Below, piece after piece: positions 8,884 through 59,114 of a stretch of 64,000 nucleotides of DNA (position 1 is its first letter; every line of letters begins with the position of its first letter). The notes under the pieces are model-generated. The model made no database searches, had not been told where the DNA came from, and was given only the letters and a program-made list of their open reading frames with translations. The stretch lies in sequence record OZ413487.1, one strand, 5' to 3'. Source of the DNA: a phage. A program made the position numbers and the translations under genes.

Positions 8884-10629
8884 ATGGCGCAAGACATGAC
8901 AAGCTTTGAGCAGGCGGTAGATCAAGTAATTGTTGATTCTGAACGTTTGCACCTGATTGTCAACGGTAACGCTGTGGATGAAGTTGTCGTAGAGGATGGG
9001 ACCACCATCCCTACGGTACGAAAAGCCATGCTTGACACCCTTTATTTTAAAACGCCACCGATCCCTTGGGCGTATGGTGCATCCACAACAGTTTTTAACC
9101 AGCTGTACGAGTTTAAAGGGGACACAGGCCCTCAGTGGTGGTACGCTCCCGCAGCATCAAAATCTAACCCGGTTAGAATGCCAGCAGATCCTTCACAATC
9201 TCCAAACTGGAGATTATATACCGATTCTGCAGTAATGGCAAAATACTACGCAAAACTTAACAGTCCGAGGTTCGAAGGTGACCCGCGAGTACCTACGCCT
9301 CCAATGGACGACAAATCCGAGTCTATAGCAAACACAGAGTTTGTTGTTGACTATGTGGATAGCATATTTGAAGCCATGGAGGGAATGAAAGTTACTGTAG
9401 GGTCTTTGGTGGTAAAAGGTCTTACAGAACTTGCTAACACTATAGTTGGTGGCACACTCACCTTACATGGGCCTGTTAATGGAGCAGATTCTACTGCACG
9501 CTTCAGGAACCTAATCCTCACGGCAAATACTTCTACACTTACTTTTGCGTGGAGTGATCCTAAGCATGCAGACTGGAGAAGCACAGAGCTGCAACCTCAT
9601 GAAGTGTCCACCCACAGGGTTATAGCTGACACTATAACTTCTGGGAAACCAGTGGCTAATAATAACGATGTGCATTTTGATGGTCTAGGTAATAACTTTT
9701 TTGACTACGTGTACATTCGTGGTAATGCCATGAAGGCAGCAACCGAACCGACATTGCAGGTAGATGGAACCACCAGGGTTAAGAACCTTGAGGTGACAGG
9801 CACTGTTACAGGGATAACCTACTCTGTCGATGGCACCATGATTTACCCTAGCTATATTGAAAGCACGGGGGACGCATTAATAAATGGTGATTTAGAAGTT
9901 GGCGGATCTGTAGTTATTCGAGGTACAGCCTCTATCCAAAACATAGCTCTGAATACCCTAAGAGTCAATGAGCGTGCAACTTTTGAAGGGGAAGGGCTTA
10001 CAGCCAACAAAGGTGTAATTACCGAGCTGACAACCACTACTTTAACTGCAACAACTGCAAACTCTGAAAACTGCAACGTTACCAGAAACTTGCAGGTAAA
10101 TGGAGATGTTAGTTTAAACGCAGCAGGGACGGGCACCACCTACCTTCACAACCTTGAAATATCCGGCACAGTGACTGGGTGGCTGCCAGACTTCTCTAAT
10201 GTCAACTTTGTTTGTAATGGCATTAACTCCAGTGGCAAGATAACCACCTCTCAAGAAATTGAGGCGGGTAAAACCATTACTGCCCCTACTTTCCACGCAG
10301 GAAAGGTAGATTTTGATTTAGAGGAGGTTGACGCGTCCAGTGGGACATGGACACCTAACGGGCAGGCCAGTATGTATGTTGTCCACGCGAAAGGGGATTT
10401 TACAATAGGACAATGGCCTGGTACATCAGCGGAAGATAAACCTTATCCATTCACTGCGGTTATCTATGTCATTCAGGATGCTGTAGGTCACAACGTGACT
10501 TTGCACGATAAGTATGCTATCCTGTCGGCAACGCCTGTTATTAATAACAAGGCTAATAGTGTTACCTTGCTGCAATTAACATATTGTGGTGTTGGTGATA
10601 TCGTAGACGTAGTAATTGCACAACGTTAA
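8884..10629 (+). CDS. tail fiber / tail spike protein (581 aa)
   Basis: Long beta-rich ORF with T/G/N-rich repeats, RBS GGAGAA, in the fiber module, followed by a terminator. Confidence 0.6.
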   Translation: MAQDMTSFEQAVDQVIVDSERLHLIVNGNAVDEVVVEDGTTIPTVRKAMLDTLYFKTPPIPWAYGASTTVFNQLYEFKGDTGPQWWYAPAASKSNPVRMPADPSQSPNWRLYTDSAVMAKYYAKLNSPRFEGDPRVPTPPMDDKSESIANTEFVVDYVDSIFEAMEGMKVTVGSLVVKGLTELANTIVGGTLTLHGPVNGADSTARFRNLILTANTSTLTFAWSDPKHADWRSTELQPHEVSTHRVIADTITSGKPVANNNDVHFDGLGNNFFDYVYIRGNAMKAATEPTLQVDGTTRVKNLEVTGTVTGITYSVDGTMIYPSYIESTGDALINGDLEVGGSVVIRGTASIQNIALNTLRVNERATFEGEGLTANKGVITELTTTTLTATTANSENCNVTRNLQVNGDVSLNAAGTGTTYLHNLEISGTVTGWLPDFSNVNFVCNGINSSGKITTSQEIEAGKTITAPTFHAGKVDFDLEEVDASSGTWTPNGQASMYVVHAKGDFTIGQWPGTSAEDKPYPFTAVIYVIQDAVGHNVTLHDKYAILSATPVINNKANSVTLLQLTYCGVGDIVDVVIAQR

Positions 10630-10637
10630 TATATATC

Positions 10638-10667
10638 TAACCGCTCCTGACGGGGCGGTTTTCTTAT
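10638..10667 (+). terminator. rho-independent terminator
   Basis: CCGCTCC / GGGGCGG stem followed by TTTTCTT. Confidence 0.7.
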
Positions 10668-10679
10668 CTGGAGAACACA

Positions 10680-13600
10680 ATGCTTCCAATCCCTTTGCTA
10701 AAACTTGGTCGTCATTTCCTCGATAAGAGGGGTGGAATTAAGGAACTTGCTGTTCTGTCATACCCAATAGACAACAGTGATGGTACAAGCAACACAGTAT
10801 CCTATGTAAATAGCTTAGCTATACTTTTTGATGATGGTCAGCTTAATATTACTGGCTATAATAGGTTCGGAGAGTGTCGGACTGGAGATCTTGATACAAT
10901 AAACTATCCTAATGAGGCAGCTTGGAACGTAGACCATGTTTGGAGAGCTGACCGTGCATTTGTAATCCGCACATTCGATAATAAATTTTTCTATATTGGT
11001 TGCACAGCTGGTCTTATCGGATCGGAGGCAGCAGGTGGAAACGATGTTTGTGTCAGAGAGTGGACACCTTTGCCGGAACAGATCGTAACAGGGTTGCATT
11101 TGGACACCCATCCTGAGAGACTTGTTGAAGTAATGGGTGGCGTAAACAATACAGTGTGGGTAATTGCTGCACCAGAGGCTGATGGTATGCTTCACCTGTA
11201 CGGCTCTGGCAATAATACTTACGGCTCTCTTCATGTTGACAAAAGTCAACACGCTACTCCAGTTAAGATCGGTGAAACATCTGAAAGTCCAGAGACAGGT
11301 CCTTGGAAAAATCCAAGAATTAATTGTGAAGTTCATGACAACTCGGTTATTTTTGGTGGTCCTAACGGATTCTGGATTGCAGGTTACGATTTCTTAAGAA
11401 ATAACAGCAAAAACACACTAGTTTATCCAGCCGAGCATGTGACTCTTGACCAGTTTAAAGGCATCCCGGTGGGCGAGACATGGAAAGGGTTCATGTGTGG
11501 ACCTAATGGTGCAATTATAGCCACAGAAAGGATGCACAAACCTGATGACCAACAGCTTGTTAACGTATTCTACGGGCAAGACGTCTGGGGAGATGACACA
11601 TGGCGTTCCTTAAATATCACCTACACCCATGAGGTGATAATGGCTCGTGGATACGGCACAAGTGGCATTTTCTTCAATAATGGCACTAAACAGTATCGTG
11701 GATTCTCTCGCAACTTGTGTAATGATATTGGTGCACAATCTGCAAACAATAGCCCTAGGGCTAATTTTATCCACTATCAGGCTCTTGCTACAGCTAAATA
11801 TGTTGAGCAACGCCTGCCAGTTAGCTGGACAGAGAGTGTTTATTTCCAAGGCATCCACAGGGAAGGTTTCTTAGGAACCTTTACTGTTGTTAATGGCAAA
11901 CTTTGGTGGTCAGGCATCCCAAGGGGGAGTTTTGCAGGATCTAACAACCTCTTTGGCGGCAGACTTAACAGCCAAGGGTTCACAGAGATTCCGGAGAATT
12001 GGTATAAAAATGTCCCGGTAGATAGCTGGGGTATCGAAGACATCTTTGATGTCAATGGTGTGAGCAATGTTAGCAACATTTACATCGGAGATACTGTCAA
12101 GATGAAATTGAAACCTCAGCCGGAGGGTGCTACGTTCATTATTGACAAGATTGAGTTGGTAAATGCTGCAGGCACTGTTGTTACAGATGCAAACTATCAG
12201 TTCTCCACTAACTGGAACCATGGTGGTGCTAACGAAGTTGTGGTCACCCAGTATAACCGTAACATCAACAGACGTGGTTTGTATTCTATCAAGATCACCT
12301 ACCATGACAAGCATGGCACTGGAAGAACCTGTACGACAAGGACTTTGAACTGGAACACTATAGTTCCTGCGTATCCGTCCAACGGCAAGTGGCATACCGT
12401 TGGTAGAAACAAGCAGTTCCATGTTAACGATACTGTATACTTTGGGCTGAATGGGACCCAGCCTGCAGTAGAAGGGGATACATCGTATATGGTCAGACTC
12501 CACAGAATGGATGCTGGATCAGTCACTTATGATGTGACCCAAGAGATCTACGATCAAAGACGCGCCACGTATGACAATATTGTGAAAACACAAGCCTTGT
12601 GGAAGTTCAATCCTAATGGCAAGGGTGGTAAAATGTTGCAGGTTAATGAGCAGAACGGAACGTCGTTGACTGTTCACGAACACCCAGACCCTTGGCCTGA
12701 TCCTGGAAAACCTCACCCGGGAGCTCGTACACTGAAAATTGTCAGCCATGATGCAGGGTATTTCGGAATACGCTGGGAAGCTACAGTAAGATATGTCGAC
12801 GGGACAACAAACAACATAGGGATTACACTTGGCGGCACTAGTGAAGATAACTCGCTGAAAATTGCCTACACGCCTAGAGGTATCTCTATTGATAATATGG
12901 ATGTTGTTCGCAATGGTTACGGCGATGTGAATGTCAAAGTTACTCTTGGCGAACATCTTGGTGGGGAAAGGATCATCATGTATGCCTTTGATCATGATCC
13001 ACGCACCAATGGAACTTATGCAAATCAGGCATGGAGTTACCTGATAAATGCACCTGAGCCGAATACTAAAGAGTTCTACTATGGTATGAAGCGAGATGTG
13101 TGCAAGAAAACAGGAACACATGACTGGATTGCTATCTGCGTTAAAGATGAGCGCACAGCTTGGGATGAGCCTGTTAACAGATGGTTCATAGGTATTCCTA
13201 CCAGAAGTGATAAGTATGTCGCAGAATATATTGTATGCATGGGCGGTACCAACCTAAACATGTGTTGGAACGAAGATGTAAACAAATACTCTGATTATGA
13301 CTATATGAGGGATTACTCTTGTAATTTGTGGTTTAACCAAACTACAGGTTACCCTCCGCGTCAGGCAAGGGTAAATCCTGCAATCTTTACAGATACGCAG
13401 GTTTTCTTGACAAAACAGGCCAACGAGGTTCAGACCTTCAAGAATAACTATGACCCTAACAAGTGGTTCTACAACTGTTACGGCGCATTTTTCTGGGGAC
13501 CTGGTGAGTTACCTGGTGGAGGATCTTGCTTGAATGAGGCAACTTACGCCAGTGACTACATCATGGGGCAGGTCAAGAAGTATAAGATAATCCCCGGTCC

Positions 13601-53210: not shown

Positions 53211-53561
53211 ATGAAAGTCAAACTATATTACCTTAATGAGCTTAACCCCCTTGCCCAGGTCCGCGCCCTAGCTAATACCTTGATTTGTGAGAAATCTGTA
53301 TATTGTGTTGAGCTTAACGCCATGCGTGAACGTCTCAAAGGTGGTTACTTTGACATCCATGCTGCAATCAACGGCCTGAATATGGAATTTATACGCTTAC
53401 GTAACAGCCGCCGGAATCTGGCAAGAATGGAACAAGATCCGGCCCACCTTCGTAAACTGGTTATTGAAAATCATCTGATGTTTAATGCCGAGGGGGATTA
53501 TTACCATTTTCACCGCAAACGCTGGTACCGTGGCGGCAATACAGGCAAGAATGCAAAATAA
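53211..53561 (+). CDS. hypothetical basic protein
   Basis: 116-aa ORF; two hairpins and a terminator downstream. Confidence 0.55.
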   Translation: MKVKLYYLNELNPLAQVRALANTLICEKSVYCVELNAMRERLKGGYFDIHAAINGLNMEFIRLRNSRRNLARMEQDPAHLRKLVIENHLMFNAEGDYYHFHRKRWYRGGNTGKNAK

Positions 53562-53596
53562 GGCCCCTAGCAGGGCCTGCAGCAATATAATCACAT

Positions 53597-53631
53597 AAAG
53601 GCCATGCGGTTGCATGGCCTTTATTATTTTG
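53597..53631 (+). terminator. rho-independent terminator
   Basis: GGCCATGC-GGTT-GCATGGCC hairpin plus TTTATTATTTT. Confidence 0.75.
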
Positions 53632-53678
53632 GCGTTACAACGGCATACGGGGCGCTTAAAAAATTTTTAAAGAAGTAC

Positions 53679-53706
53679 TTGCATCATTCCCGACAATATG
53701 GATAAT
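53679..53706 (+). promoter_or_regulatory. sigma70-type promoter (TTGCAT-N16-GATAAT)
   Basis: Followed by hairpin GGGGGAGGCCCCC and an RBS; downstream coding is ambiguous. Confidence 0.45.
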
Positions 53707-54120
53707 AAGAGTTGTCGAGGGGGAGGCCCCCAATCGTTGACCAGATAGATAGGAGTTAAAATCATGGCTATTGTTACCGCTGGCTATCTTCAAAGATGCG
53801 GAAGCAAAACAACGCCGGATCTCAATACATGAGATCATCAACCTTAACGCTGGAGGCACACCATACCGCCCAGGACCTGGCCGTGAGATGGACAATACGC
53901 TAGCGATCCTGAAGATACGCCGTAAACGGTCCTCCCTTACTCTGGACTCATTACACACAATGCAGCCTCCGTTCCAGGTGACCGGGAAACGGATCGCCAG
54001 GTCCTGGACAAAGGCCAATGATCGGACCGTATAAATAAAAGTGTTTTGGTACTGATTTTGGGGTTGACTTGTTCGGCCCCTTTTGCTATTCTTATTAAAC
54101 GGGCGGCACTTGGGAACAGG

Positions 54121-54143
54121 GGGAGACAATCACCGGGCCTGCC
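54121..54143 (-). repeat. 23-bp motif, inverted copy of 46681-46703
   Basis: Exact reverse complement (GGGAGACAATCACCGGGCCTGCC). Confidence 0.6.
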
Positions 54144-54168
54144 TGTCATATAAGAACTATAAAAACCG

Positions 54169-54197
54169 TTGACATCTGCCATGGGGTGGGGTAACAT
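54169..54197 (+). promoter_or_regulatory. sigma70-type promoter (TTGACA-N17-TAACAT)
   Basis: Upstream of the 54252 gene. Confidence 0.5.
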
Positions 54198-54251
54198 TTA
54201 TCTTGAAGGGGCAAAAGTGCCCACACAACAACCAAGAGAGAGGAAAACACT

Positions 54252-54524
54252 ATGTCAAACTGGATTAATCAAGAAGTCGAATCACGTTTTAATGCTATTT
54301 GGGATCTCATCGAAAAAGAAGACGGCACATCAAGCCCCTACCTCAACAATTTGGAATTCCATTTTGTGGAAGCGATGAACGCAGAACATGATCACGAAGG
54401 TGGCGCGGATGAGTTCGCTAAAGGTTATGGCTTTAACAATGCCAACGAAATGATCGAGGCGGTAGTACTCCAGGCTGAGGAAGATTATCAACTAAAAACG
54501 CTTGAATTCTGCCGCCGCAAGTAA
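54252..54524 (+). CDS. hypothetical acidic protein
   Basis: 90-aa ORF with RBS AGAGAGGAAAACAC. Confidence 0.55.
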   Translation: MSNWINQEVESRFNAIWDLIEKEDGTSSPYLNNLEFHFVEAMNAEHDHEGGADEFAKGYGFNNANEMIEAVVLQAEEDYQLKTLEFCRRK

Positions 54525-54584
54525 TAAGATAATGACACGGGCCAAAAGGCCCACTAATCAGAACCGCACAAAGAGGTAAACATC

Positions 54585-54848
54585 ATGAAACGTCTTGATC
54601 AGCTCAAATTAGTTCAATATATGGCTTATCGTGTTCTTGAAGTCCAGAAAGGTAGCAAAAAAGAGGTTTGCGAGAAAGCTTATAAGATCTTCACTCGCAA
54701 AAAAGATGACTGGATGCTACGCCAGACTAAAAAGGCTGACATCTTGGGGTACCTGGAAGAAGAGATCCGCCTTGAAGAGCAAGAAGAGATCCGCCGTAGT
54801 GAGGCAGATTATCAGGCAGCTTGGGAAAACTGGATGAGCAACAAATAA
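54585..54848 (+). CDS. hypothetical protein
   Basis: 87-aa ORF with RBS AAAGAGGTAAACAT; terminator downstream. Confidence 0.55.
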   Translation: MKRLDQLKLVQYMAYRVLEVQKGSKKEVCEKAYKIFTRKKDDWMLRQTKKADILGYLEEEIRLEEQEEIRRSEADYQAAWENWMSNK

Positions 54849-54865
54849 TACAACAAGGTGCACGG

Positions 54866-54894
54866 TCAGGGGCTTAAAGCCCCTTTCTTTTTGT
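54866..54894 (+). terminator. rho-independent terminator
   Basis: GGGGC-TTAAA-GCCCC hairpin plus TTTCTTTTT. Confidence 0.75.
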
Positions 54895-55772
54895 CTCCTC
54901 TTTTCCTACCACAAATGGCCCCGCCTGGCAAATGGAATAATCAACAAGCCAGCAATTAACCCCACTGTACAAACATACATATAAAATAACTATTGCATAA
55001 TTTTTCATTGTGTGGTAGCAGTGCCATTTTTACACGTTTTTCCTTCCAAAATTGCACGTAATGCAGCATTTGCACAAAATTTAACCTGATGCATATCTTC
55101 AATAGCTTGTCAACAACTAAAAATCTTTATAAGTCATACACTTACATAACTACAAAAACGTTTTCTACGTGAAAAATCGAGTATAACTATAGCCGCCAGA
55201 TCTCAGAATTTACGTACGCTCGCCATTCTATAGCCTGCTAAGCATTTATTCCAACCATAGAATAACGGAATAGTCAATACCTGCATAAAATAATTATTCG
55301 TGTAAACTGCATAACATAAATCGGCCCAGGTGTCAACATTTTTCGTAAACAGTCTGGAATTGTCACGTTAGGTTACCATAAGCAGAGAAATCTTTAGTCG
55401 TCTAATGTTTACTGTACATTACTATACTGACTGGAATCATTAGATGACTAAGAGAAAGATAAGAAATAATTAATAATGTAATTATTTTACCTGTAACAAT
55501 AAGGCAACTATGCAAACGAATGGCATGGCGCGACGGAGTCGCGACATAATATAAAAGCAGTAACCATCACCCCCGTGATAGTTTGTCTGCAAACTATTAA
55601 TCAGATCATAGTTGCCTTGTATTTAGTTAATCATGACATGACAAGCAAGGCAACTATAGATCTGCTAATAGTTGCCCTGCTTTTATATTATGTCATGCTA
55701 ATTATAATCAGTGCGATTATTGTCATGTATAATTATTGTCATGCAAACGAATGGCATGGCTGATTATCGGTG

Positions 55773-55859
55773 TGTAAACAGTCAATCATGTAAATGGTTA
55801 GCATGTGAACAATCAGGAATGTAAACAATCCAGTGTGTAAACTAATAGGTGTGTAAAAG
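55773..55859. repeat. iteron array: six copies of (G/A)TGT(A/G)AA(C/T) at roughly 16-bp spacing
   Basis: GTGTAAACA, ATGTAAATG, ATGTGAACA, ATGTAAACA, GTGTAAACT, GTGTAAAAG. Confidence 0.6.
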
Positions 55860-56135
55860 TGTCATGTTGTGTCAGTTAGGTCACATTATGTCAGACAAGT
55901 TTTTCTCCTCTTTGTCAAGTGCTGCATGAAAAATTTACAAGCTTGTATGGTAGCATTTTTGCGGCCCTGTTTACATTCAGTAATGTATGTATAATCCTTG
56001 TTGTGTGGGCGTTTAGACGTCTAGACGGTTGGAAGTCCACAGGTCAATATCTAATCTATCGGCTGCTAACTATATCCCACACAAATAGTAAGAAATATGA
56101 TTGTTATATGCGTAAACTGTAACTCATGTTATCAA

Positions 56136-56505
56136 TCCCTGTATGGATCGCCAGTGGTGCGCATAATAGGTATTATGTTAAATTGCCCGTAATGATAACA
56201 GTTCTCACAATGATAGGTATTCTCATTCATCCACACAAAATAGGTTGCAAATGTTGTGCCACTGTGTGAACGGCCTGGCCTATTAATTTCTCTCACTGCC
56301 TCGATATTTGAGAATTGTTATCCCTGTATGGATCGCCAGTGGTGCGCATAATAGGTATTATGTTAAATTGCCCGTAATGATAACAGTTCTCACAATGATA
56401 GGTATTCTCATTCATCCACACAAAATAGGTTGCAAATGTTGTGCCACTGTGTGAACGGCCTGGCCTATTAATTTCTCTCACTGCCTCGATATTTGAGAAT
56501 TGTTA
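56136..56505. repeat. perfect tandem direct repeat, 2 x 185 bp
   Basis: Copy 1 (56136-56320) and copy 2 (56321-56505) appear identical base for base when read by eye. Confidence 0.8.
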
Positions 56506-57564
56506 TAAGAATGAGAAGTATTCCCATTCCGTCCGCCTGGCAGCACTCCTGTAGGTCCTGCAAGGACTCTAGCTGAAAGCTAGACCCTTCGGGCCTCCCT
56601 GTAGGTCAGGTCAAAATCGTGGTAGAATTGGGCCTGTTCAGATATTTCTGGCTGACTCTTCAGGTCTGTGTGGGAAAAGCCAACCTCTCCGGCGGGGCAG
56701 GGGGTCATGACGGGAAAATTGCAGGTCAATTAAAAAATTTACGTGGTGTATGAAGCGCTCTTCAGGTAAGGCATGTATTATGGGATGAAACCCTCTTCAG
56801 GCAATGATATTTGTGGGTGTGATATTTGCTGGAAAGCCAGATATGACGGGACTCCCGGCGGGGATGGGGTAGTACAGACAGGGAAAATATGAGAATGTAG
56901 TTGGGGAAATTGATCAGACAGGTAGAGTATGGAATATGTTACAAGTATGTTAAATATGGAGGTTGAATATCTGTAGGATTTGTGTGTAAAATCAAAGACT
57001 TAAGGGGTGTTGTGGTATTTTCTATAAATAATTCAAGTTTAATAGGCAATATTTGTCTCTATCCGCTTTGTGTGGTAAACAGATTCAGATTAGATTGGTT
57101 TACAAGTGTATACATAATATACAAATTAAAGATACAAGAAACCCCCCTCCCCCTTCGGCTACCATTCACCTTTTCCTCTGACTGGTACTTAAACACTTAT
57201 TCAGACTCTTCAGGTTATCACCCATATATCATATGGCAGTGACTGGTGTCCTCCGGCCCCTCTTTCGTCACCCGTCCGCTTCGCCATGCTAATGCCATAG
57301 CCAATGGTTCGGTTGTTCACTCTGTTCACTCAGGTGTATCTCCATACCCCTTCAAACCGAAGAGAACAGAAAACCCGAATTACTCGGTAAAAGAAAAGAG
57401 AAGAACTTAATTTTATCAGGATAGGCAAGAATGTCAAGGCATGACTGCTCACTAAACAAGCAAACAGTCATGTGTGGAAGGTAAGTGATTGTGGTGGTGG
57501 GAAATTTAGTTGAAAGATGTGTTATAGGTGCTCCCAGCACTTTAGCCGGGTAGCTAATTGTGTG

Positions 57565-57846
57565 TCAGTCCAGTGGTTCATCACCTACTTCACTGAAATC
57601 AATGTTCATGGTCTCCTCCCAACCATCAATCTCAGCACCAGAGTAGAGATCTTTAGGACTTACTCCCAAAGCATCAGCAACAGAGTCCATATTTAACACC
57701 TCTGGCAGGTATGATTCATCGAATTCAAGGTAAATCAGGCCACGAGTGTTGTCAGCTCCACCAAATATTTCTATCTTCATGAAATCTCCTCTGGGAATGA
57801 GAGTGTGAACAGGGTTTATACGTTCCAATGCGCTGGAATTATGCAC
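57565..57846 (-). CDS. small acidic protein
   Basis: 93-aa ORF, first of the minus-strand block. Confidence 0.5.
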   Translation of the reverse strand: MHNSSALERINPVHTLIPRGDFMKIEIFGGADNTRGLIYLEFDESYLPEVLNMDSVADALGVSPKDLYSGAEIDGWEETMNIDFSEVGDEPLD

Positions 57847-57900
57847 GTTTGCCTCTTCAGGCCATGCTTCAGCATGAGGAACCTGTGTGGGCTCGGTGCT

Positions 57901-58113
57901 TCATAGTCTACCACCCCTGAACTCTTCGTGCTCAGGCATAATAGAGAACCAGATATCTACGATGTCTTCCCACGTCAGGTCATCAGCCTCAGGATCTACC
58001 TGGAGCGAAGATGAAGAATCTTCAGAATCGAAGTTTTCCTCTTGCACTGGCTCAGTCAAGGGACATATAGTCACTCCTTTGGATGTCTCTTCAGATGCAT
58101 GTGTGTTTATCAT
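57901..58113 (-). CDS. small acidic protein
   Basis: 70 aa, D/E/S-rich. Confidence 0.45.
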   Translation of the reverse strand: MINTHASEETSKGVTICPLTEPVQEENFDSEDSSSSLQVDPEADDLTWEDIVDIWFSIMPEHEEFRGGRL

Positions 58114-58232
58114 GTTCCACCCGTGAGTATTCCGGCAACAGCTGCTATGGACGTAATGATCATCAGGATCACCACTAAAACTTCGGACAATGTTCTCATT
58201 GTGTACTCCATATTCTACAAACTATGTGTGGA

Positions 58233-58261
58233 TACTATCACTGGATCGGTAATGTGTCAAC
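58233..58261 (-). promoter_or_regulatory. sigma70-type promoter (minus strand, TTGACA-N17-TAGTAT)
   Basis: Reverse complement of 58233-58261 reads TTGACA, a 17-nt spacer, then TAGTAT. Confidence 0.5.
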
Positions 58262-58418
58262 AGAAACGCCGCGAGGGTTTGGTTAAAATCCGAGCGTATG
58301 GTGATTTGGGTCAAAACGGACGTGCGTTCTCGCTACGCTCGAAATATGGAGTTGTTTGTAGGGAGCTCTTAAACGCTCTGTAATGAAATTAACTACCCAA
58401 GGTATGCAATCGTGCACC

Positions 58419-58449
58419 AGACAAAGAAAAGGACGCCACAGAGCGTCCT
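58419..58449 (-). terminator. rho-independent terminator (minus strand)
   Basis: AGGACGC / GCGTCCT hairpin followed on the minus strand by TTTCTTTGT, just downstream of the gene ending at 58474. Confidence 0.6.
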
Positions 58450-58473
58450 AGGTGTCTTAAATTTGATATTTTG

Positions 58474-58785
58474 CTATACCCACGAGGGCTTATCAAGGTT
58501 GGAGTAGCTGAAAGGTGTCAAAAGGTGACTGTCAAAATCTCTCAAACTATCCAAATCTTTTTCCTCGTCCTGACACCATCTGTGCCTACATTTGTTGTTG
58601 TAGTGCATGGAATGCATAGCGTTCTGCAACTTAACAGGCACAAGTGATTCAGGAGTAGATAGTATTGTTGGGTATGCCAGAACCACCTCAAACAGTGGAA
58701 ACACATCGAAACTAAAGTCTACCTCTGCAGAGGTTGATGGCATATAGGAGTATTTAGCCGCCTTTGTAGACATAATCCACCTCAC
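58474..58785 (-). CDS. hypothetical protein
   Basis: 103-aa ORF. Confidence 0.5.
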   Translation of the reverse strand: MRWIMSTKAAKYSYMPSTSAEVDFSFDVFPLFEVVLAYPTILSTPESLVPVKLQNAMHSMHYNNKCRHRWCQDEEKDLDSLRDFDSHLLTPFSYSNLDKPSWV

Positions 58786-59114
58786 ACAGGTTTGATAATA
58801 CCTTCACCGAATAGCTCTTCGTATCTAATCTTGTCCGGATCCCACTCCTGTATAATTTCGAAGACAATATCCAACCCAGGAACAATCACTTCTCCAGTGT
58901 CAAGCTTAGCAAGAACAAAACCGGAAGGTTGAATGGTTTCCCAGTTACGGCGATCAGAATAAAATACTTCGAAAATATCACCAACCTCAATCCGTTTCTG
59001 TTGCTCAAGATGCTGAAGGTTCTCTTTCATACGGATGCAGCGTATTTTTCGTGCAGGCCATAGACCACCTGCATCACGTTCATTCAATTCTTTTACAGTG
59101 ATCGGTATACCCAT
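58782..59114 (-). CDS. hypothetical protein
   Basis: 110-aa ORF overlapping the downstream gene by 4 nt. Confidence 0.5.
   Translation of the reverse strand: MGIPITVKELNERDAGGLWPARKIRCIRMKENLQHLEQQKRIEVGDIFEVFYSDRRNWETIQPSGFVLAKLDTGEVIVPGLDIVFEIIQEWDPDKIRYEELFGEGIIKPV

Follow-up and report, generated by a model that had tools for sequence, protein, structure and literature searches.

Among the rV5-like coliphages of the genus Vequintavirus, EdH4 and HdK5 were linearised where their sequencing reads stopped abruptly, and their terminal redundancies were given as 458 bp (PMC6563267). Klebsiella phage KPP-1, a Mydovirus of the same subfamily, was assigned a 514-bp terminal repeat from two-fold coverage and a T7-type call by PhageTerm (PMC9862379). 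In Vibrio phage ICP1, PhageTerm placed peaks at positions 431 (+) and 891 (-), 461 bp apart in a 1.3-kb space free of open reading frames (ORFs) (PMC7145576), and a 14-bp packaging signal that is mimicked by the PLE satellite has been proven in that system (PMC11417361). The T7 model holds that concatemers carry one copy of the repeat and that the second is synthesised at packaging. Here we analysed a 64-kb stretch of phage DNA (64,000 nucleotides of record OZ413487.1, hereafter the window), and in particular a gene-free zone at 54895-57564. The genome paper of rV5 had noted "no observable ORFs" in the corresponding interval but offered no explanation. An initial annotation of the window had proposed that the zone holds a replication origin, a packaging site or the physical genome ends. 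We conclude, with high confidence, that it corresponds to the concatemer junction and hence the physical terminus of the Vequintavirus chromosome, because the ends of related genomes, the opening of the Pr121LW record, the cut-site motifs of KPP-1 and ICP1, and a pair of internal boxes coincide here.

Positions 54850-57600 aligned with 122 Vequintavirus records at 86-97% identity, none of them identical, and by this similarity the source phage is an rV5-like Escherichia coli phage of this genus. In the HdK5 and EdH4 records, the two ends are formed by one exact 459-bp repeat, which maps to 55894-56537 in the window with 94-95% identity, identical boundary nucleotides and the same flanking synteny. 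The terminal repeat of the Vequintavirus group is thus already published. The ends of both records map at cut site "b" (Table 1), which is invariant in 22 relatives, and the Pr121LW record was opened at the same nucleotide, ending in ...TATGTCA and beginning with GACAAG. Position 1 of the HdK5, EdH4, bov11CS3 and bov25_3 records corresponds to window position 56537, at cut site "a", which is nearly invariant in relatives; neither site shows more than one changed base across 22 Vequintavirus genomes. Alignments of 10 and of 25 relatives gave the same limits. In these, a conserved block begins at TGTCA/GACAAG (55889; a slash marks the cut throughout), immediately past the stretch of lowest conservation in the zone, and stops 14 bp past 56537, where an indel cassette with three alleles begins. 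In each of the 22 relatives that cover both boundary motifs, these lie 458-461 bp apart, and in 18 the distance is exactly 459 bp. The window, with 644 bp between its cut sites, is the sole outlier among 23 genomes; this length equals 459 + 185 bp because an extra copy of a 185-bp unit is present. The repeat is single-copy in the 22 relatives, and in the window its offsets 242-426 occur twice. Together with the cut-site motifs of KPP-1 and ICP1, the read-defined repeat of EdH4 and HdK5 and the opening of Pr121LW bear out the earlier suggestion of a packaging site or physical genome ends.

The nucleotides at these boundaries recur in other lineages. In the window they read (reverse complement) TGCTGCCA/GGCGGACG and TTATGTCA/GACAAGTT. 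The mapped boundaries of KPP-1, CGGTGCTA/GACGGACA and (reverse complement) TATTGCTA/AACACAAT, are homologous to them, with TGCTA/AACA as the counterpart of site "b" and GTGCTA/GACGGACA, found also in Seunavirus, as that of site "a". At the peaks reported for ICP1, the ICP1_2006_E sequence reads GGGTGTTA/AGCTCG and (reverse complement) TATTGCTT/AACAAC, in which TGTTA/AGC corresponds to site "a" and TGCTT/AACA to site "b". All six mapped ends, from three lineages, match TGYYW/RRC(A), as do the predicted sites in three Seunavirus genomes, and as in T7-type phages conserved cut sequences stand at both repeat boundaries. As a sequence, TGYYW/RRC(A) is a degenerate palindrome of 9 bp; in the window, the left site (TGTCAGACA) is perfectly palindromic. 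A reading of the two cut sites as inverted copies of one motif was dropped, because a degenerate palindrome leaves the orientation of the motif undefined. A random position in the region fits the motif within +/-2 nt with p = 0.0055. As the ICP1 sites were not used in defining the motif, the chance that both would fall on it is about 3e-5.

The repeat also holds a second shared element. Exactly two AATGAGAA boxes lie in each single-copy repeat in the lineage of the window, in KPP-1 (3414 and 3455 in the sequence used) and in ICP1 (722 on the minus and 777 on the plus strand), where about 0.02 would be expected by chance; the extended consensus is RAATGAGAATnnTT. Their offsets within the repeat are 327 (-) and 432 (+) in 22 of 22 relatives. 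One match to a DnaA box with a single mismatch, TCATCCACA at about 56225, was rejected as chance-level, and a canonical sigma-70 promoter that would use the conserved TTGACA beside cut site "b" was rejected on direct reading of the sequence, any -10-like hexamer being at the wrong spacing. A direct nucleotide comparison of KPP-1 with the window gave weak matches, and the kinship of the two is visible at the mapped boundaries and boxes only; the KPP-1 repeat sits in a similar convergent, gene-poor zone. The last ~50 bp at the "b" end (TTGTAAATTT...CTTGACAARGAG...TGTY/T) can be aligned across Vequintavirus, Mydovirus and Seunavirus. In the Seunavirus phages PVP-SE1, R7 and EspYZU15, both sites are kept 515 bp apart and alignability is lost just outside them; a terminal repeat of 515 bp is therefore expected in PVP-SE1-like phages. 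The Seunavirus alignment conserves only one of the KPP-1 boxes, box 2; the segments scanned in these genomes, in which the interval from "a" to "b" was not delimited, hold 1, 2 and 2 exact boxes, one box of PVP-SE1 being mismatched. The Seunavirus sites lie in an ORF-free convergence zone of about 2.2 kb (482-2722 in PVP-SE1).

The surroundings of the repeat are non-coding and follow a set order: terminators, a variable short-repeat array, a cut site, the terminal repeat, the other cut site and indel-prone modules (Table 1). As the initial annotation had stated, two gene blocks converge on the zone, with plus-strand genes stopping at 54848 and minus-strand genes at 57565, and convergent small-gene blocks lie on both sides of it in all relatives. 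Its description as ORF-free also held up. Across 25 genomes, 12 candidate ORFs were examined for intactness and for codon-position bias, and not one was coding-like; none had an excess at the third codon position and most are broken in relatives. Within the spacer at 54895-55509, too, ORFs are broken in relatives and lack codon-position bias. The zone had further been called AT-rich, which fits 54800-56400 (guanine-cytosine [GC] content 0.35-0.40) and does not fit 56200-57000 (0.44-0.475). The high density of repeats that had been noticed exceeds chance even after removal of the second 185-bp copy: direct 10-mer repeats cover 59 positions, compared with 11 +/- 7 in Markov simulations and 18 +/- 17 in other intervals of the same genome, and inverted repeats cover 46 positions, compared with 14 +/- 7 in simulations. 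Elsewhere the window encodes baseplate and tail proteins and a T7-like replisome, with a PIF1 helicase, a primase-helicase of the DnaB/gp4 type and a family A polymerase; rV5-like phages have a T7-type replisome with a gp4-like primase-helicase and a family A polymerase.

Table 1. Features of the convergence zone and its edges in the 64-kb window, from left to right.
Feature	Position	Strand	Remarks
Intrinsic terminator ending the plus-strand gene block	54868-54884	+	Stem-loop and T-run; fold z = -2.4
Conserved non-coding spacer	54895-55509		GC about 0.35-0.38; 84-97% column identity to 10 relatives
Direct repeat ATGCAAACGAATGGCATGGC, copy 1	55510-55529	+	20 bp
Two face-to-face intrinsic terminators	55543-55694		Inverted repeats, terminator scan, fold z-scores
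Direct repeat ATGCAAACGAATGGCATGGC, copy 2	55741-55760	+	20 bp
Variable short-repeat array adjoining the terminal repeat	55761-55893	+	GTRAAY units every 15-16 bp, 55773-55857
Cut site "b", TGTCA/GACA, perfect 9-bp palindrome	55889-55897		Predicted genome end between 55893 and 55894
Direct terminal repeat equivalent	55894-56537		644 bp here; 458-461 bp in relatives
185-bp unit, copy 1	56135-56319	+	Offsets 242-426 of the terminal repeat
AATGAGAA box 1	56220-56227	-	Repeated at 56405-56412 within the extra copy
185-bp unit, copy 2 (extra)	56320-56504	+	Unique to this genome among those compared
AATGAGAA box 2	56510-56517	+	9-mer GAATGAGAA nowhere else in the window
Cut site "a", GCC/TGGCA (reverse complement TGCCA/GGC)	56535-56542		Predicted genome end between 56537 and 56538
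Three-allele indel cassette	56552-56600		Flanked by CCTGTAGGTC direct repeats; column occupancy 0.38
Conserved G-rich module region	56656-57214	+	CTCTTCAGG x4, CCGGCGGGG x2, ATGACGGGA x2; GC skew +0.39
Near-invariant non-coding block	57150-57450	-	Near-consensus sigma-70 promoter TTGACA-16-TAAAAT at 57437-57410

Cutting is most likely site-specific and T7-like. Virion DNA would then be linear and non-permuted, starting at 55894 and ending at 56537 after one genome length, so that 55894-56537 would stand at both ends as a direct terminal repeat. The same repeat would be single in concatemers and in a collapsed assembly, where about 1 kb of non-coding DNA would flank it on each side. We propose that terminase would be placed by the internal RAATGAGAAT boxes, which are candidate sites for a small terminase, and by the phased half-sites and short repeats outside the repeat, which may act as loading or spacing elements. 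It would then nick opposite strands at both motifs, and extension of the 3' ends through the repeat, with strand displacement, would leave every daughter genome with the complete repeat, as the T7 model describes. Terminators at 55543-55694 and 54868 would block convergent transcription across the junction.

Several points weigh against this reading. The ends of this very genome are placed by homology to its relatives; no terminase small subunit or box-binding protein has been identified; and the cut-site consensus was derived post hoc from four sites. With about 35 matches on each strand of the 64 kb, it cannot specify cutting alone. Published statements also favor another reading, in which the zone is a pac site, the genome is packaged by the headful and circularly permuted, and the 459-bp "repeat" is a choice made in curation. 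The authors of ICP1 read their own data as pac/headful (PMC7145576, PMC11417361), and the PhageTerm call for ICP1 was likewise permuted or headful. The rV5 paper calls its genome circularly permuted, and for other Vequintavirus isolates PhageTerm gave "circular permutated" (the bov phages) and headful (BpE1AUH). The rV5 statement, however, is based on 3.6-fold Sanger shotgun coverage, and libraries made with transposase blur termini. Headful packaging would not be expected to yield two sharp sites whose spacing of 458-461 bp is kept in 22 genomes, nor to put a common motif at both cuts in each of the separate lineages whose ends have been mapped, and at the predicted Seunavirus sites. Abrupt read ends at both sites and a strictly bounded block of two-fold coverage would be equally unexpected. 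We therefore regard headful packaging from this zone as very unlikely, and would reconcile the conflict between "circularly permuted" and "458-bp terminal redundancy" in favor of fixed ends.

The zone could instead be, or contain, a replication origin, one of the options named in the initial annotation; an initiator would then bind the TGTAAAC-type repeats as iterons, with unwinding in the AT-rich DNA. Direct repeats, a low GC content (0.35) and a turn of GC skew in the zone would suit an origin, and the skew change given in the rV5 paper (104425-105475) falls inside the homologous region. Yet that turn coincides with the switch of transcription direction, as the rV5 authors noted, and the array, in a zone that is AT-rich, does not fit an iteron-type origin. 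Its period is 15-16 bp, viable relatives carry between 1 and 8 strict units in arrays of 106-211 bp, and no initiator gene is adjacent, the "replication initiation protein" gp075 of rV5 lying about 40 kb off. For classical iterons, the array is too variable and its phasing is odd. What support remains for the origin comes from the analogy with ICP1, whose late rolling-circle replication begins beside the terminus (PMC7145576, PMC11417361); the primary theta origin of ICP1, however, is elsewhere in its genome. An origin here thus appears unlikely, and the claim was not upheld. Parts of the zone might also be genes for non-coding RNA, with a minus-strand transcript started at 57437-57410 and other transcripts ending at the face-to-face terminators. 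This promoter is near consensus (11/12 matches and an extended TG), the block at 57150-57450 is nearly invariant in 24-25 genomes, the terminators are strong and have no ORF upstream, and ICP1 expresses abundant non-coding RNAs. A scan of 53500-59000 with Rfam 15 at a permissive threshold, however, returned only mir-7131 at the chance-level E value of 4.8, with no family matched beyond chance, and the predicted folds of 57130-57403 on either strand (z -0.5 and -0.4) are no better than those of shuffled sequence. Covariation is unmeasurable because the block is invariant, and no counterpart is detectable in KPP-1. We consider RNA genes here quite improbable; for the zone as a whole, we retain the concatemer junction with fixed ends.

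The 185-bp duplication is outside the normal architecture of this terminus. It is exact, as had been noted, with copies at 56135-56319 and 56320-56504 that are 100% identical, and it is the sole large tandem repeat in the window. The junction between the copies reads GAATTGTTAT/CCCTG, with a 2-nt (AT) microhomology, and the longer sequence across it is GAGAATTGTTAT/CCCTGTATGG. The whole duplication lies within the terminal repeat, for which the chance is about 0.002 if the site were random in 137 kb. The initial annotation had raised the possibility of terminal repeats juxtaposed in the assembly, and had pointed to related genomes as a place to look for a single-copy unit. The unit is indeed single-copy in all relatives examined, 24 of which were aligned, and the duplication was not seen in a total of about 140 relatives. 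Juxtaposition did not stand: it would yield 2 x 459 bp, whereas the 459-bp repeat is collapsed to one copy and the 185-bp unit comes from within it. Among the best 30 of 120 phage records matching a query centered on the junction, no alignment spanned it. It was also absent from the metagenome contigs of IMG/VR and JGI, a weak negative because the positive controls show only one Vequintavirus contig in each collection; the phage records are the stronger control.

Two explanations for the duplication deserve weight, and we lean towards an assembly artefact, in which a contig with partial terminal repeats overlapping by 185 bp was re-circularised or rotated untrimmed. If the repeat is divided into A (241 bp), B (185 bp) and C (33 bp), an eroded contig running B C ... 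A B would, once rotated or circularised untrimmed, read precisely A B B C. For phages with terminal repeats, it is documented that assemblies can leave partial repeats at the ends of contigs, and the duplication is located exactly where assemblers mishandle coverage and read ends. The identity of the copies, their absence from every relative checked and a repeat length that is otherwise fixed (458-461 bp, and 514-515 bp in other genera) also speak against a real event. On the other side, assemblers do not usually leave a k-mer overlap of 185 bp, and the ends of the duplication differ from the physical ends; because the junction is away from these, it is no simple end-to-end join. A real and very recent duplication, made by slippage or unequal exchange within the recombination-prone terminal region and present in both terminal repeats, would produce a 644-bp repeat; the microhomology at the junction fits slippage, and indels are frequent in the flanks of the repeat. 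We find this second explanation plausible but somewhat less convincing. In either case, the duplication needs checking before this genome serves as a reference or for phage engineering.

To the left of the repeat, the array and the terminators account for several elements that had been listed in the initial annotation under other names. Five of its six "iterons" match TGTRAAY (55773, 55789, 55804, 55820 and 55836), and the sixth (55851) reads TGTAAAA. The period of the units is about 15.5 bp; the ranges of unit number and array length given above come from 25 genomes, and nowhere else in the zone is conservation as low. At its cut-site end are four TGTCA or GGTCA half-sites (55860, 55870, 55879 and 55889), spaced 9-10 bp apart, or one helical turn, which run straight up to the palindrome of the cut site; similar phased series are present in Pr121LW and rV5. 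The direct repeat noted as 19 bp is present and is 20 bp long, with copies of ATGCAAACGAATGGCATGGC at 55510 and 55741. Between them, the "20-bp perfect palindrome" at 55578-55597 is an inverted repeat that forms a hairpin (z = -3.7) and is not perfect, having 8-bp arms and a 4-nt non-palindromic spacer. Inverted copies of TAGTTGCC and GGCAACTA were located at 55503, 55609, 55649 and 55669. These palindromes and inverted TAGTTGCC motifs are explained by two face-to-face terminators with a shared tail, CTGCTTTTATATTATGTC: a minus-strand hairpin at 55562-55583 (z -3.7) and a plus-strand hairpin at 55643-55682 (z -4.6). A terminator is annotated at 55543-55694 in two relatives, Alma and Murica, as is the one at 54868-54884. 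It is plausible that the face-to-face terminators shield the junction against convergent transcription. In phage FV3, precisely the 231 bp that separate the 20-bp direct repeats are missing, both terminators included. This deletion probably arose by recombination between the direct repeats, and the terminator module must be dispensable because FV3 lacks the whole stretch.

The right flank consists of repeated modules and a conserved block. The indel cassette, which begins 14 bp beyond the repeat, has three alleles: an insert of 49 bp rich in hairpins (the allele of the window), an alternative insert, and no insert. Of the modules that had been listed beyond it, CTCTTCAGG occurs at 56656, 56758, 56793 and 57206, which are 4 of just 5 plus-strand copies in the window, CCGGCGGGG at 56689 and 56855, and ATGACGGGA at 56707 and 56843; all were confirmed. 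An indel hot spot at 56700-56730 lies within this G-rich region. The block at 57150-57450, about 300 bp, is almost unchanged in 24-25 relatives, which exceeds the conservation of the neighbouring genes, and it has no coding signature. There is no tRNA in the window. At the left edge of the zone, at a site between 54848 and 54895, rV5, Murica and several metagenomic contigs have an extra gene of 139 amino acids ("Rel homology domain") that is lacking in the window phage, nomo and FV3. Finally, 19 "Campylobacter phage" records (MG0656xx) are 87-94% identical to E. coli Vequintavirus phages across the zone, and records of this series that were listed in the TerL search have a TerL that is 99.6% identical. 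They probably carry a wrong host assignment or are contaminants.

Most of the ~120 deposited Vequintavirus genomes have been treated as circularly permuted and opened arbitrarily. If the junction is as we propose, their true ends could be placed to the nucleotide from the sequence alone, at TGTCA/GAC ... GCC/TGGCA. The shared motif and box across Vequintavirus, Mydovirus, Seunavirus and ICP1 also amount to a concrete proposal for how one clade of terminases recognises DNA. The TerL proteins of ICP1 and rV5 are 34% identical over 94% of their length, and the TerL clade of rV5 may share one type of genome end. We tentatively propose, as a possibility that we do not yet favor, that paired TGYYW/RRC(A) sites 459-515 bp apart with two RAATGAGAAT boxes between them are the packaging signal of the whole clade, comprising the rV5-like phages, Mydovirus, Seunavirus and ICP1, and possibly the phAPEC8-, PAK_P1- and Felix O1-like phages. 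Were this true, the clade including ICP1 would consist of short-terminal-repeat packagers and not headful packagers, and the boxes would be docking sites of its small terminase, which might include the 14-bp signal mimicked by PLE. Full-length homologues of the rV5 TerL are found in phAPEC8-like (40%), PAK_P1-like (37.5%) and Felix O1-like phages (35%) and in Rheinheimera Barba phages (51.5%); in rV5 itself the gene (10028-12873) is split by the insertion of an HNH homing endonuclease. Worth pursuing are the common cut site, the common boxes and the reading of the ICP1 "pac site" as a ~461-bp terminal repeat. The latter reading bears on the hijacking of packaging by PLE and on the missing small terminase of ICP1, and GAATGAGAATCATTC is the sequence to set beside the 14-bp signal shared by PLE and ICP1 (Fig. 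1C of PMC11417361).

Among the described systems close to the window are EdH4 and HdK5. They share the boundaries TGTCA/GACAAG and GTCCGCC/TGGCAGC at 94-95% identity, between convergent small-gene blocks, and differ in a repeat of 459 bp where the window has 644 bp. Korf 2019 gave the terminal redundancy one sentence, and the cut-site motif, boxes and flanking arrays are not described there (PMC6563267). KPP-1 resembles the window in its architecture, in its pair of AATGAGAA boxes and in a conserved module at the terminus, about 50 bp long, TTGTAAATTT...CTTGACAAGGAG...TGT/T, but differs in a repeat of 514 bp, in boxes placed towards the opposite end of that repeat and in shorter non-coding flanks.

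The "pac site" of ICP1, between gp1 and gp2, likewise has two cut sites, two boxes between them and extra coverage between the cuts. Because its peaks fall on the shared motif and enclose two AATGAGAA boxes, ICP1 may package by a short terminal repeat. Its flanking genes diverge, and its authors read the locus as a headful pac site (PMC7145576, PMC11417361). The TerL gene is split in both cases, by a T5orf172-domain gene in the ICP1 lineage and by the HNH homing endonuclease in rV5. Compared with T7, the window belongs to a 137-kb myovirus that uses host RNA polymerase, its genes converge on the ends and do not run from left to right, and its TerL belongs to the clade of rV5, Felix O1, PAK_P1 and ICP1. 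Packaging in T7 is tied to pausing of the phage RNA polymerase at the junction, which would be impossible here. In other respects the two agree. Short-repeat arrays lie beside the repeat of the window and, reportedly, beside that of T7 (SRL and SRR); both have a family A polymerase with a gp4-type primase-helicase, and both would have fixed ends with a repeat of a few hundred bp that is single-copy in concatemers and duplicated at packaging.

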